NCBI GenBank assembly: GCA_019057675.1
Contig: JAHLWX010000003.1
Coordinates: forward strand, 1-48,677
Length of the DNA stretch: 48,677 bases
Origin: Candidatus Jordarchaeum sp. LHC_1308
GTDB lineage: Archaea > Asgardarchaeota > Jordiarchaeia > Jordiarchaeales > Freyrarchaeaceae
Direction: 5' to 3'
The first letter of the stretch is position 1, and every line of letters starts with the position of its first letter. The position numbers were made by a program, and so were the translations under genes. The notes under the pieces were generated by a model. It searched no databases. It saw only the letters and a list, made by a program, of their open reading frames with translations, and was not told where the DNA came from. This document shows positions 23,346 to 39,576 of the stretch, piece after piece.

Positions 23346-24408
23346 ATGGTGATTTATGTGCCTAAAAGTATTCCGCCGGAAGGCATGAAAAGAAAGGTGA
23401 TCATTAAAAGTGAGGATGAAACTAGTGAAGAGTACGGTAAACACCCTAGCGAGAGGAGCGTAAAAGAACTTTTAGAGGGATGCTTCGTGAACATAGATAA
23501 GCCAGCAGGCCCAACTAGCCATGAGGTCTCATCTTGGGTAAGGAGGATTTTGGGCTGCTCGAAGACAGGACATGCCGGGACACTAGAACCCCTTCAGTCC
23601 CTTGGAGGGGTGGTGAAACCCTAAGGTTACTGGAGTCCTGCCGGTGGCGATAGGTTCTGCCACAAAGATCATACAGGCCCTCCATCTTATAGGAAAAGAA
23701 TATGTTTGCGTTATGAGGATGCATGGGGACGTCGAAGCTGAAAGAATTCAAAGGGTTTGTAAGGAATTTACTGGGCTGATTTATCAGAGACCACCAATAC
23801 GCTCTTCGGTGAAACGCAGACTTAGAATAAGACGAATATATTACCTTGACGTGCTCGAAGTGGAAGGGAGAAATGTCTTGCTAAAAGTAGGATGCGAGTC
23901 TGGAACTTACATAAGGAAGATCTGCCACGATATAGGGGAAGTGTTAGGCTGCGGAGCTCATATGCGCGAGCTTAGGAGGACTCGAAGTGGACCCTTCACC
24001 GAGGAGAACATGGTAACATTGCATGATTTAAAAGACGCATATGTTTTTTGGAAAGAAGAAAGTGATGAGAAGTACCTTAAAAAAGTATTATTACCAGCAG
24101 AAGAAGGAGTCCGTCACTTGCCCAAGTTTTTCGTGAGAGACTCGGCTGTCGACGCTATATGTCATGGAGCGGACCTGGCGATTCCCGGAATTGTCAAGTT
24201 TGAAGATGGAGTGGAGAAAGGCGACATGGTTGCAATTTTGACTCTAAAGGGGGAACTTGTGGCTCTTGGTGTTGCCATGATGACCGCGGAGGAAGTCATA
24301 AAAGAAAAGCGTGGAATAGCTGTTAAAACAGCAAGGGTAATAATGGACAAGGGGACATACCCAAAACTCTGGAAAAGCAAGAAGAGCAACTATTCAATCG
24401 AGCAATGA
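23346..24408 (+). CDS. cbf5: tRNA/rRNA pseudouridine synthase Cbf5 (H/ACA RNP catalytic subunit), split by a 31-nt intron: join(23346..23586,23618..24408)
   Basis: Track ORFs 23346..23624 and 23644..24408 are the two halves of Cbf5, in different frames. Removing 23587..23617 gives ...[24 protein letters not shown]..., the TruB/Cbf5 catalytic-Asp motif. The product is 343 aa. The C-terminal PUA domain is present. Confidence 0.9.
23587..23617 (+). other. BHB-type intron in cbf5 (31 nt)
   Basis: Structure: CACU[AGA]ACCCCUUCA-gucccu-UGGAGGGGU GGUG[AAA]CCC. The central 4-bp helix pairs 23581-84 with 23612-15 (3 Watson-Crick pairs and 1 G.U). Two 3-nt bulges flank it. The inner helix is 9 bp (23588-96 with 23603-11). 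Cleavage after nt 2 of each bulge gives CUA G|AC CCU. Confidence 0.8.
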
Positions 24409-24485
24409 GTATCGTAAATGCCCGAAAAATATAAAATACTACTGAGCTTTCTCATTCCTAAAAGTGGCAGGAGGGTTAACAGAGG

Positions 24486-24791
24486 TTGAAGTATCCTAAA
24501 GTTAGGCGAACCTACTGCCCACGATGTAAAGCACACACGGAGCACACGGTTAGTGTCTATAAAAAAGGTAAAGATAGGACGCTGGCTGCAGGGGCTAGGC
24601 GTTATGCGAGGAAAAAGCGGGGTTATGGAAGTCAACCTAAGCTCCTCTACATTTTGTAGAGGAGGGGCAAGCCCGTTCAGAGAGAAATTGCGAAGACCAC
24701 CAAGAAAGTTAGCTTTAAGCTTAAGTGTAAGGAGTGCGGCCACATAATTCACACTAGGGGTATCCGCCTCAAAAAAGCTGAAGCAGTTTAG
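24486..24791 (+). CDS. rpl44e: 50S ribosomal protein eL42 (L44e), split by a 30-nt intron: join(24486..24640,24671..24791)
   Basis: Not in the ORF track as a single ORF. My hand translation is [52 protein letters not shown]|[39 protein letters not shown]. Both CxxC pairs are present. TTG start with a GGAGGG SD-like element upstream. The unspliced frame hits TAG at 24657-24659. Confidence 0.85.
24641..24670 (+). other. BHB-type intron in rpl44e (30 nt, in frame, carries a TAG stop)
   Basis: Structure: ACCU[AAG]CUCCUCUAC-auuuu-GUAGAGGAG GGGC[AAG]CCC. The inner helix is a perfect 9 bp (24642-50 with 24656-64). The central helix pairs 24635-38 with 24665-68 (2 G-C, 1 G.U, 1 A/C mismatch). The outer helix is weak. 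Confidence 0.7.
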
Positions 24792-25010
24792 ATGGAGGGA
24801 TTTAATTTGCGGAAAGAGCGCGAGATTATTCCTCAGCCAAGAAGCCGCTTTTTAAAGGTTCAGTGTCCCGATTGCGGTGCGGAAAACATAGTTTTCGATA
24901 AGGCAAGCACTGTCGTTAAATGCTACCTTTGCGGAACAGTGTTAGCTGAGCCAAGAGGAGGAAAATCTACCCTCCAAGTAAAAAAGGAGAGCATTCAAGT
25001 TTTAAGTTAA
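24792..25010 (+). CDS. rps27e: 30S ribosomal protein eS27
   Basis: The zinc-ribbon sequence FLKVQCPDCGAENIVFDKASTVVKCYLCG is typical of the family. It occupies the conserved slot after rpl44e. Confidence 0.9.
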   Translation: MEGFNLRKEREIIPQPRSRFLKVQCPDCGAENIVFDKASTVVKCYLCGTVLAEPRGGKSTLQVKKESIQVLS

Positions 25011-25029
25011 AAAAAGGAGAGGCTGTAAT

Positions 25030-37565: not shown

Positions 37566-37717
37566 AGCCTTCTCGTAAGCCTCACCCAACAAAATACCCC
37601 CTTTTTCAAATTTTTAGAAACACCATGAAGAACACTTTATTTAAAACTTTCCAGCTAAACTCATACTCCACCATTATGAACCGATTAGAATTTGTTATTT
37701 AATTTGAAACGGAAATC

Positions 37718-37754
37718 CCTTTATGGCCTTACGGAATCTTCCTTTATGGCCTTA
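37718..37754. repeat. 14-nt direct repeat CCTTTATGGCCTTA, two copies, in the aIF2-gamma/aEF1-alpha divergent intergenic region
   Basis: The two copies at 37718-37731 and 37741-37754 are exact. The spacing is 23 nt centre to centre. Confidence 0.6.
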
Positions 37755-38239
37755 TAAAGTGGCAACAACTAAAGGAACACTTTGTTCCTCATATGAAAAC
37801 TTATATATGAACACTCGATAACAAACCATTAATAAATTATGAGTGGCTCATTTGACCACGGTCAGCCGCCGCCCCTTCTTTTCATCAGGATTTTGATGTT
37901 AACGACATTTCTGTTAGGGTTTCCTTTTTTATCCTTTAAATTACCGGACAAGAACCTTTAAGGATTCATTGTCTATTCGCCCCAGTTTGGCCTTCAAGGC
38001 GCTAGAGAGGGACGGACAAGCTGTCCAATTTGAGGTAACAATGATAGACTATGGTGGATGAAGAATGAGGAGCTGTCGAATAAGATCATCCGAATAAGAA
38101 ATAAGAAGATAGACATGTAACCGGCTGACTCTACGACATGTTCGACGTAGCTTGAACGCTGGAACCTGTCCGGAAGACGGCGAAAAGAATAAAAAAGGAG
38201 CACAATACACATTCTTAGCAAGTGATTGGAGGAGTAAAA

Positions 38240-39576
38240 ATGAGCGAGAAAAAACCACACCTAAACATAGTAGTGATAGGGCACGTTGACCATGGGAAAA
38301 GCACGATGATGGGACACCTCTTATACTTGGCAAAGGTGATCGATGAACGTTTAATTAAACAGTACGAAGAAGAAGCAGAAAAAATTGGCAAGGGAAGTTT
38401 CAAGTATGCGTGGGTTATGGATAAATTGAAGGAGGAAAGAGAGCGAGGACTCACCATTGACCTTTCATTCTGGAAGTTCGAAACAGAAAAATACTACTTC
38501 ACAATAATCGATGCACCTGGGCACACGTAGGAAGCATTTTTGAGCTTCCTACGGCTTAAAAGGACTTTATCAAAAATATGATCACAGGTACTAGTCAGGC
38601 GGATGCAGCGATTCTAGTGGTTTCTGCTAGGAAAGGCGAGTTTGAGGCTGGTGTTGGTCCAGGTGGCCAGACAAGGGAGCATGCATATTTGGCGTTTACG
38701 TTGGGCGTTAACCAGATAGTCGTCGCAATTAATAAGATGGATGATGCCGGCGTTAACTGGAGTAAGGAAAGATATGATGAAGTGAGGAAAGAAGTTGAGG
38801 CTTTACTGAAGCAGGTTGGCTACAAGGTTGAAGAGATACCTTTTGTTCCAGTGTCTGCTTGGTATGGCGATAACCTTTTTGAGCGAAGCGACAAGATGCC
38901 ATGGTATAGTGGGCCGACGCTTGTTGAGGCGTTGAACAGCCTGAAAGTGCCATCCAAGCCCGTGGATAAGCCATTGAGAATTCCAGTACAGGATGTTTAC
39001 AGCATTACCGGTGTTGGGACGGTTCCGGTCGGCAGGGTGGAGACTGGGGTGTTAAAGGTTGGAGACACTGTAGTCTTTCAGCCAGCTAACGTGAAGGGTG
39101 AGGTGAAGTCGATCGAGATGCACCATGAGCCGCTTAGTGAAGCTTATCCAGGGGATAACATCGGGTTTAATGTGCGTGGCGTCTCGAAGAAGGATATTAA
39201 GCGTGGAGATGTTGCAGGTCACCCAGATAAGCCGCCCACCGTGGCTGAGAAGTTTGTTGGACAGATAATCGTTATTCAGCATCCTACGGCGATTGCTGCA
39301 GGGTATACGCCGGTGGTTCATGCGCACACAGCTCAGGTTGCATGCAGATTTGCAAAGCTCATTGCTAAGCTGGACAGACGAACTGGTCAAGTGGTGGAGG
39401 AAAACCCGAGTTACATTAAACGCGGCGACGCGGCACTTGTGGAGTTTGAGCCAGTGAGACCCATGGTGGTGGAGCCTTTCAAGGAGATCCCGCAACTGGG
39501 GCGTTTTGCGGTGCGTGACAGCGATTATACTGTTGCGGTCGGTGTTGTCAGGGAGGTTAAACCACGCGCTGCTTAA
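38240..39576 (+). CDS. tuf: Translation elongation factor aEF1-alpha, split by a 35-nt intron: join(38240..38524,38560..39576)
   Basis: Track ORFs 38222..38530 and 38578..39576 are the two halves, in different frames. Removing 38525..38559 gives ...[32 protein letters not shown]... G1 (GHVDHGKST), G3 (DAPGH) and G4 (NKMD) are all present. The product is 433 aa. ATG 38240 is preceded by a GGAGG element. Confidence 0.92.
38525..38559 (+). other. BHB-type intron in aEF1-alpha (35 nt)
   Basis: Structure: CCU GGGC[ACA]CGUAGGAAGC-auuuuuga-GCUUCCUACG GCUU[AAA]AGG. The inner helix is a perfect 10 bp (38526-35 with 38544-53). The central helix pairs 38519-22 with 38554-57 (2 G-C and 2 G.U). Two 3-nt bulges flank it. 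The outer helix is 3 bp (38516-18 with 38561-63). Cleavage gives CAC|AAG GAC. Confidence 0.85.

Follow-up and report, generated by a model that had tools for sequence, protein, structure and literature searches.

Candidate bulge-helix-bulge introns in core translation genes of a Jordarchaeales (Asgard) archaeon

Why should five genes in one stretch of archaeal DNA each be interrupted by an insert of only 13-35 nucleotides (nt), and are these inserts errors, damage or introns? The stretch (the window, meaning all 48,677 nt of it) is contig JAHLWX010000003.1, positions 1 to 48,677, of Candidatus Jordarchaeum sp. LHC_1308 (assembly GCA_019057675.1), and the genes are cbf5, rpl44e (encoding eL42), kae1 and those for aIF2-gamma and aEF1-alpha (EF1a below). 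Our answer is that the inserts are very probably bulge-helix-bulge (BHB) introns of the kind cut by EndA, the transfer RNA (tRNA)-splicing endonuclease, and are spliced from the messenger RNAs (mRNAs) of a Jordarchaeales (Asgard) archaeon. An earlier reading of this DNA (the original prediction) had claimed five inserts in these genes, and all of them lie where it put them. The exons and candidate introns are as follows, with ^ marking a cut or junction here and below.

23346..23586, +: cbf5 exon 1, ending in GGGACACTAG at the first letter of the catalytic Asp codon; Pfam DKCLD on the called 92-aa open reading frame (ORF)
23587..23617, +: cbf5 candidate BHB intron, 31 nt; same site in loci L084 and L086 of relatives
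23618..24408, +: cbf5 exon 2; TruB_N and PUA domains
24486..24640, +: rpl44e (eL42) exon 1, with a TTG start; homologues in protein search
24641..24670, +: rpl44e candidate BHB intron, 30 nt, with an in-frame TAG; same site in L084, L086, L174 and L175
24671..24791, +: rpl44e exon 2, including the stop codon
33685..33917, -: kae1 exon 1, with ATG at 33917 (the public gene caller chose 33986)
33672..33684, -: kae1 candidate BHB mini-intron, 13 nt, AGGAAGCCCCUAA; identical in L002 and L003, with homologous introns in eight relatives
32921..33671, -: kae1 exon 2
37510..37565, -: aIF2-gamma exon 1, MRTQSLVSIGTAGHVDHGK; the start is possibly further upstream
37481..37509, -: aIF2-gamma candidate BHB intron, 29 nt, in the P-loop (K^T); identical in L169 and L170
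36307..37480, -: aIF2-gamma exon 2
38240..38524, +: aEF1-alpha exon 1
38525..38559, +: aEF1-alpha candidate BHB intron, 35 nt, canonical hBHBh'; identical in L169 and L170, which are from other samples
38560..39576, +: aEF1-alpha exon 2; supported by substitution rates (below)

Deleting the insert leaves a single stop-free ORF in each of the five genes (Cbf5 343, eL42 91, Kae1 327, aIF2-gamma 409 and aEF1-alpha 433 aa) and restores the motifs that had been quoted for them: GTLDPKVTG (cbf5), GSQPKPV (rpl44e), GPGLGPCLR (kae1), GHVDHGKTT (aIF2-gamma) and DAPGHKDFIKNM (aEF1-alpha). The interruption sites fall in the most conserved motifs of these proteins, namely the catalytic Asp, P-loops and the G3 motif. 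If they are not removed, four of the inserts cause a frameshift, and the fifth, the 30-nt one of rpl44e, brings in an in-frame TAG; reading of the unspliced sequence ends within the insert in every gene except cbf5, where it ends 5-7 nt beyond, so the claim that each insert breaks the frame or brings a stop holds. The spliced junctions read GCCGGGACACTAG^ACCCTAAGGTTAC (cbf5), GGAAGTCAACCTAA^GCCCGTTCAGAG (rpl44e), GAGGGCCGGGGTT^AGGCCCATGTTTG (kae1), GTTGATCACGGTAA^AACAACGCTTGTT (aIF2-gamma) and GCACCTGGGCAC^AAGGACTTTATC (EF1a), and that of kae1 in Freyarchaeia CP147778.1 reads GGTCCGGGGCT^AGGACCTTGC. Annotation had been expected to split, truncate or miss these genes, and the public gene calls do just that: EF1a (96 + 332 aa), TsaD/Kae1 (104 + 243 aa) and Cbf5 (92 + 254 aa) are split, aIF2-gamma is called as 396 aa with its start inside the insert and therefore without its P-loop, and rpl44e is uncalled.

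The window sits on a metagenome contig in ENA (ERZ27245635 k141_88834, 93.5 kb), from which we took the public gene calls, and the sequence examined from this one genome comprises the window and ~18 kb of contig flanks (L172 and L173), ~67 kb in total. The nearest homologues of a 477-aa DHH/RecJ-like protein encoded mid-region belong to Candidatus Jordarchaeales (81% identity), and the next, at ~50% identity, to Jordarchaeaceae, Freyarchaeia, Baldr-, Atabey- and Odinarchaeia, which places the organism among the Asgard archaea. Two proteins with eukaryote-like signatures fit this origin: a Roadblock/LC7-domain protein (window 7496-8080, +) and a small Arf/Ras-family GTPase with a longin-like domain (L173 1-113).

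We compared syntenic loci from Jordarchaeales GCA_038881135.1 (L084, DHH identity 81%), L087 (79%), L086 (72%), Jordarchaeum madagascariense (L004 and L175), the Freyarchaeia SRVP19 chromosome (L005) and Odinarchaeia (L015), along with the metagenome or Logan contigs L088, L164 and L174. These relatives are a lower bound, as DHH-protein scans of metagenomes and genomes gave mainly Bathyarchaeia and few close relatives.

One cleavage rule suffices for all copies. For each interrupted copy, we listed every junction compatible with the conserved peptide and then screened the list for the rule, which is a cut after bulge nucleotide 2 across a 4-bp helix, judged against protein sequence and not against complementary DNA (cDNA). 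The original prediction had applied this rule to five inserts; it gives a protein-compatible junction in 5/5 window introns and, with relatives and contig flanks included, in 26/26 copies at eight sites. The central helix is paired at 4/4 positions in 20 of the first 22 copies tabulated and at 3/4 in the other two, and the rule also holds in two more rpl44e copies (L174 and L175) and in two genes of the contig flank, aIF5B and PCMT, described further on. Copies and intron lengths at the remaining sites are as follows.

cbf5 site, 3 copies: 31 (window), 30 (L084) and 29 nt (L086)
rpl44e site, 5 copies: 30 (window), 30 (L084), 29 (L086), 33 (L174) and 33 nt (L175)
kae1 site, 9 copies: 13, 14, 14, 14, 29, 28, 32, 30 and 29 nt
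aIF2-gamma K^T site, 4 copies: 29, 29, 31 and 29 nt
aIF2-gamma G^H site, 2 copies (L084 and L086 only): 30 and 33 nt
EF1a site, 1 copy: 35 nt

Lengths at the same site fall into different modulo-3 classes, so no frameshift-type explanation fits. The G^H site belongs to a second aIF2-gamma intron, which lies between the G and H of GHVDHGK (L084 ~3625-3654, 30 nt; L086 ~3602-3634, 33 nt) and 16 nt upstream of the K^T intron, leaving a 16-nt micro-exon between the two.

How might such inserts be removed? In the pre-mRNA, the last four paired nucleotides of exon 1 would pair with four near the 3' end of the intron to give a central helix, with a 3-nt bulge 3' of each of its strands. EndA, which in Asgard archaea is the (alpha-beta)2 type with an L1 loop that tolerates relaxed motifs, would cut after the second nucleotide of each bulge, and an RtcB-type ligase would join the exons and probably circularise the intron. 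The full protein would then be encoded by the spliced mRNA only, with the unspliced mRNA stopping inside or just after the intron. Splicing at the RNA level is an inference that the comparative data strongly support; EndA cleavage, RtcB ligation, circular introns and the timing of splicing relative to translation are steps that we infer.

We ran unconstrained RNAfold on each junction with 12 nt of flank. This yields the BHB itself for EF1a, cbf5 and aIF2-gamma; for kae1 and rpl44e the predicted structure is a close variant of it. EF1a has an outer helix CCU/AGG (3 bp), a central helix GGGC/GCUU, bulges AC^A and AA^A and a 10-bp inner helix (z = -3.96). In cbf5, the central helix is CACU/GGUG, the bulges are AG^A and AA^A, the inner helix has 10 bp and the 3-bp outer helix is displaced by one unpaired nucleotide (z = -1.27). 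For aIF2-gamma, the central helix is CGGU/GCCG with a bulge AA^G, the 3' site AG^A is open, and the inner part consists of two 4-bp stems with a G.G mismatch between them (z = -2.76). The kae1 junction combines an outer helix GGGCC/GGCCC (5-8 bp) with a central helix GGGG/CCCU in the register of its relatives, bulges UU^A and AA^A, and an inner part of only 1-2 bp and a loop (z = -2.69). Finally, rpl44e has a central helix ACCU/GGGC (3 bp plus A.C), bulges AA^G and AA^G and a 10-bp inner helix (z = -2.83). Both flanking helices (outer exon-exon and inner intron) are thus present in EF1a, cbf5 and kae1. A 4-bp helix between two cleavage sites had been described for all five; cbf5, kae1, aIF2-gamma and EF1a do have a 4/4 paired central helix and 3-nt bulges, but rpl44e has 3 bp and an A.C mismatch. 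The earlier structural description is right in substance, if slightly idealised for rpl44e and aIF2-gamma.

Comparison between species shows that the BHB helices of kae1, aIF2-gamma, rpl44e and cbf5 are evolutionarily maintained. Across nine kae1 sequences, 97.2% of cells in the flanking and central helices are paired vs 89.9% when shuffled, and the covariation score is 0.313 vs 0.163 in shuffles (0/500 shuffles reach the observed value in either case); sliding the partners by one column or more drops pairing to 66% or less. For example, one pair of the kae1 outer helix is GC in three sequences, UA in three, CG in two and GU in one, and its two letters are the third positions of two glycine codons. 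The central helix at the aIF2-gamma K^T site occurs as CGGU/GCCG, CGGU/GUCG and UGGC/GCCA, with the exon-side changes on synonymous positions of His and Gly codons, and at the G^H site it is CUGG/CUAG or CCGG/CCGG (L084 and L086). In rpl44e, ACCU/GGGC in this organism corresponds to GCCU/GGGU or GCCU/GGGC in relatives, whose inner helices also show compensatory changes, and the first pair of the cbf5 inner helix is A-U or G-C depending on the species (compensatory; compared in L084 and L086).

The sites differ in how widely they are interrupted. Homologues of the kae1 intron (14, 28, 29, 30 and 32 nt) occur in eight relatives, Freyarchaeia and Odinarchaeia included, and the intron is absent from the Jord/Frey-like contig L089 and from all sampled Bathyarchaeia and other Asgard loci (e.g., Heimdall- and Hermodarchaeota). 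For rpl44e, we found six eL42 protein clusters that consist of exon 1 only (P0293, P0300, P0301, P0302, P0303 and P0305; ORFs of 56-86 aa), which indicates that more relatives share the interruption; two of these loci were fetched (Logan contig L174 and Jordarchaeum madagascariense L175), and both have a 33-nt BHB intron at the same site. Judged from these sequences, the rpl44e intron is widespread in Jordarchaeia and systematically mis-annotated. Both close relatives that cover the cbf5 locus (L084 and L086) have an intron at the cbf5 site, a comparison confined to this clade. L087, L084 and L086 have the aIF2-gamma K^T intron, and the Jordarchaeum, Freyarchaeia and Odinarchaeia loci examined lack it. 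A 22-nt similarity of this intron to L058 and L154 is due to chance, as the matching stretch is part of normal protein-coding DNA from unrelated archaea of high GC content.

L084, L086 and L087 lack the EF1a intron, and in them GGGCAC^AAGGAC is contiguous exactly at the predicted junction. An annotated 'partial' EF1a in Jordarchaeales genome L171 (GCA_038840935.1; P0125) was considered as an intron elsewhere in the gene and rejected as a scaffolding artefact: L171 2901-3000 is a gap of 100 N between copies of a 126-nt exact duplication, and this EF1a too is uninterrupted across the window's EF1a intron site. The introns thus appear to have been gained at different times, with apparent ages from class level (kae1) down to species level (EF1-alpha): the kae1 intron is shared with Frey- and Odinarchaeia, that of rpl44e is shared within Jordarchaeia, that of aIF2-gamma K^T is confined to this family-level clade, and that of EF1-alpha to this one species. 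From this distribution, gain seems to be ongoing.

Could the ribosome deal with the inserts without any splicing? In translational recoding, it would bypass the insert (cf. the hopping on T4 gene 60) or shift frame, with the hairpins as signals and the RNA left unspliced. There is a stable hairpin in each insert and a stop codon soon after each 5' boundary, and stable hairpins and early stop codons also accompany known bypass sites. However, inserts at the same site range over 13-32 nt and all three modulo-3 classes, including in-frame ones with stops, and no single event fits them all. EF1a and kae1, the two sites inspected by eye, lack matching take-off and landing codons. It is the 3-4-3 BHB geometry that evolution has kept and that covaries, including the pairing of exon 1 with the intron 3' end and the exon-exon outer helix; EndA recognises this geometry, which counts against recoding. 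In addition, the cbf5 site is one at which cDNA-proven splicing has been reported in Crenarchaeota (PMC2738675). We therefore regard recoding as highly improbable.

Real introns might also leave the RNA by a route other than EndA and RtcB, such as another nuclease or self-cleavage. No enzyme was observed on the sequence examined, and two of the five motifs are relaxed, with no outer helix, both of which would suit such a route. However, at 13-35 nt the inserts are too short for any self-splicing intron known. Their geometry and cleavage positions are those of EndA substrates. Asgard archaea encode an (alpha-beta)2 EndA that has the L1 loop, and for this type of enzyme the use of relaxed HBh' motifs as substrates is documented (PMC5829648). 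The chance of another removal route is accordingly very slim.

Alternatively, the genes might be pseudogenes hit by small insertions, with intact copies elsewhere supplying the function or the lineage degenerating. Gene callers do give fragments, and our check for second copies covered the protein database, for EF1a and eL42, and ~67 kb of the genome. Against this, EF1a has 91-94% amino-acid and 80-84% nucleotide identity to its intron-less orthologues, with a ratio of nonsynonymous to synonymous substitution rates (dN/dS) of 0.02-0.04 at dS >0.85. Synonymous change is saturated in exon 1 and likewise in exon 2 (dN/dS 0.03 for the gene), so EF1a is under strong purifying selection. For all genes but EF1a, it is same-site conservation that argues against pseudogenes: interruptions at the same sites recur in relatives at levels from species to class, and the protein sequence on either side is conserved. 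One structural rule removes every insert exactly, and the genes stand in conserved synteny, like orthologous copies. Searches of 5.8 billion proteins, made with the spliced proteins, gave no full-length match exceeding 94% identity for EF1a or 75% for eL42, and thus neither an intact near-identical copy nor any product of a spliced transcript. Pseudogenes are hence scarcely credible.

Sequencing or assembly artefacts are the weakest explanation and have next to no probability: the window does come from a single metagenome contig, and the 'partial' EF1a of L171 warns of such errors, but independent contigs that come from different samples and assemblers (Logan SRR7539952, Logan SRR5468562 and two of JGI 3300017406) are 99.93-100% identical to the window and carry the kae1 (L002 and L003), aIF2-gamma and EF1a inserts (both L169 and L170) unchanged, which in effect refutes an artefact for three of the five, and the cbf5 and rpl44e inserts, outside the coverage of those contigs, are cleared by same-site introns in assemblies of other species.

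Returning to BHB introns spliced from mRNA, several points besides the scope of the second-copy check weigh against this explanation. Splicing is read here from DNA comparison, and the genes for EndA and RtcB are not on the ~67 kb examined. Transcription and translation are coupled in archaea, so ribosomes could reach an intron before it is removed. As for structure, rpl44e and aIF2-gamma lack an outer helix to close the 3' bulge (the relaxed HBh' type), this organism's rpl44e has its A.C mismatch in the central helix (3/4 paired, 4/4 in relatives), and the minimum-energy fold of the aIF5B insert favours a register one nucleotide off the frame-restoring one. Lastly, a strict scan for the motif (4-bp central helix, inner helix of at least 8 bp, outer helix of at least 3 bp, G.U allowed) gave 22 matches on both strands of the window, which is about the estimated chance level, and long ORFs are joined on both sides for only two of the 22, cbf5 and EF1a. 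Structure without ORF and comparative context therefore proves nothing; the signal is the co-occurrence of motif, exact frame restoration and conservation. We consequently rejected motif-only scanning as an intron detector. A hairpin from that scan, 40782-40872 (-), had z = -1.41.

The closest known case is the intron of crenarchaeal cbf5 pre-mRNA, reportedly also the subject of Watanabe et al. 2002 and Yoshinari et al. 2006. Splicing of cbf5 mRNA had been cited as established in some Crenarchaeota, which the literature confirms: the crenarchaeal intron is cleaved between the second and third bulge residues (PMC2738675, Yokobori et al. 2009), and its site is that of the junction CTAG^AC seen here, which joins 23586 to 23618 between letters 1 and 2 of the catalytic Asp codon (PMC2738675). 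The two systems share a short mRNA BHB intron, this identical junction, a cut between bulge nucleotides 2 and 3, often a relaxed motif, and dependence on a hetero-oligomeric EndA (presumed in the present case). In contrast, the intron had been known only in Desulfurococcales and Sulfolobales, where cbf5 was the sole interrupted gene, whereas the host here is an Asgard archaeon in which at least six other interrupted genes lie with cbf5 in ~67 kb.

Archaeal tRNA and ribosomal RNA (rRNA) BHB introns, including the non-canonical ones of Thermoproteales and of Frey- and Atabeyarchaeia, have the same motif, size range and presumed enzymes and likewise tolerate hBH and HBh' variants; the tRNA introns reported span 11-175 nt (PMC2738675). 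The hosts here are instead mRNAs, which need nucleotide-exact removal for their reading frame, and the exon strand of the central helix is coding, with pairing kept via synonymous sites. In Frey- and Atabeyarchaeia, 92-95% of tRNA genes contain introns, often at non-canonical positions and often several per gene (PMC11291895), and Asgard archaea encode an (alpha-beta)2 EndA with an L1 loop and a broad substrate range, the relaxed HBh' type being accepted only by such broad-specificity enzymes (PMC5829648). Both the enzyme and the intron habit are therefore expected in this lineage.

The BHB intron in the 5' untranslated region (UTR) of Haloferax volcanii HVO_1309 likewise belongs to an mRNA, which EndA cuts both in vivo and in vitro (Schwarz et al. 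2020, PMC7714728). Unlike the inserts described here, it lies in an untranslated leader and not in coding sequence, and it is a single euryarchaeal case. In eukaryotes, HAC1/XBP1 splicing is spliceosome-independent and combines a structure-specific endonuclease, IRE1, acting on twin stem-loops with a tRNA ligase (RtcB in animals), under stress regulation. It resembles our case in that a short mRNA intron is removed without a spliceosome and removal alters the reading frame; it differs in the IRE1 nuclease, the twin stem-loops and its stress regulation, of which there is no sign here.

As of 2020, only two archaeal mRNAs were known with BHB introns, cbf5 in some Crenarchaeota and the Haloferax HVO_1309 5' UTR (PMC7714728), and a 2025 structural paper on the enzyme cites the cbf5 work alone for mRNA (PMC12397907). 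Our full-text literature search, which covers part of the journals, yielded no paper that describes BHB introns in protein-coding genes of Asgard archaea, and none turned up in the accessible literature for EF1-alpha, aIF2-gamma, Kae1 or eL42, in keeping with the original prediction. The mechanism is of a known kind; new, as far as that literature shows, are the genes that host the introns, their occurrence in an Asgard lineage, their local density, the 13-nt size in an mRNA and the micro-exon in relatives.

How far does the phenomenon extend? The suggestion that introns would not stop at five genes is borne out locally, with two more on the same contig to the left of the window. The gene for protein-L-isoaspartate methyltransferase (PCMT), called as 85 + 149 aa, has a 32-nt insert at L172 19946-19977 (+) that folds as a clean BHB (CGCC/GGCG, AC^A in both bulges, inner helix 9 bp), and its removal restores ISAPHMCVLMCD. 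The aIF5B gene, ~6 kb left of window position 1, has a 29-nt BHB-like insert at GHIDHGK^T (L172 17636-17664, -), the same P-loop position as the K^T intron of aIF2-gamma, with a central helix GGCA/GGCU that is 3/4 paired in the frame-restoring register. Its 3' end, GGGCUAA, is similar to the aIF2-gamma intron ends in L084 (GGGCCAAG) and L086 (GGGCCAAA), and at both sites this end pairs with the exon. The likeness might have arisen because introns spread from one paralogous site to another, or simply because both ends are held to the same pairing. This makes seven introns in ~67 kb, or roughly one gene in twelve (~8% of genes, by a count of gene lists).

We also scanned the window for ORFs that could be merged, with loose and then tighter criteria, and obtained hundreds to thousands of candidates; because off-frame ORFs are long in this genome, such a scan is unfit to discover introns, and we used the completeness of Pfam domains instead. 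This revealed no further split gene in the right flank or the rest of the window; the check covered 30 ORFs in 1-19073 and 41483-45739, which lie outside the part annotated from the public gene calls, and the contig's own Pfam listing served for the three ORFs at 45788-48618 (no split pair). With these densities, we hold it possible, at a little under even chances, that BHB introns pervade the protein-coding genome of Jordarchaeales and their relatives, are still being gained and may spread between paralogous sites.

Other features of the region are noted for completeness. ARAGORN found no tRNA gene in the ~67 kb (window, L172 and L173), and Rfam, run on the window only, found no RNA family; multi-intron tRNAs may escape detection, given that relatives have introns in >90% of their tRNA genes. 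There are long AT-rich gaps (e.g., window 37566-38239 and L173 5400-6000), and the ORF at 42130-43263 (-), of 377 aa, has no Pfam match. Inside the plus-strand ribosomal-protein operon (S8 ... L32e), the L6 gene (14258-14839) and a 220-aa ORF without a Pfam match (14927-15589) lie on the minus strand. The GC skew dips locally and a strong hairpin (14208-14252) sits on the S8/L6 boundary; this segment (14258-15589) looks like a local inversion or insertion. Ribosomal protein L32e (15764-16453, +) has 229 aa, with a C-terminal helix-hairpin-helix (HHH_5) domain.

For this organism, genes at the core of translation (EF1-alpha, aIF2-gamma, eL42, Kae1 and Cbf5) appear to need splicing for any expression, and beside the window aIF5B and a protein-repair methyltransferase (PCMT) are interrupted too, all in a member of the archaeal group closest to eukaryotes. 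Split, truncated or missed genes of this kind affect completeness estimates, marker-gene phylogenies and metabolic reconstructions of Asgard genomes. The locus also makes it testable how cells with coupled transcription and translation cope with mRNA introns and how BHB introns arise. If ~8% of genes were interrupted genome-wide, each genome would hold on the order of a hundred or more introns. Should the introns prove pervasive, Asgard archaea would have a spliceosome-independent regime of mRNA splicing, and their cells would routinely separate or kinetically order transcription, splicing and translation.

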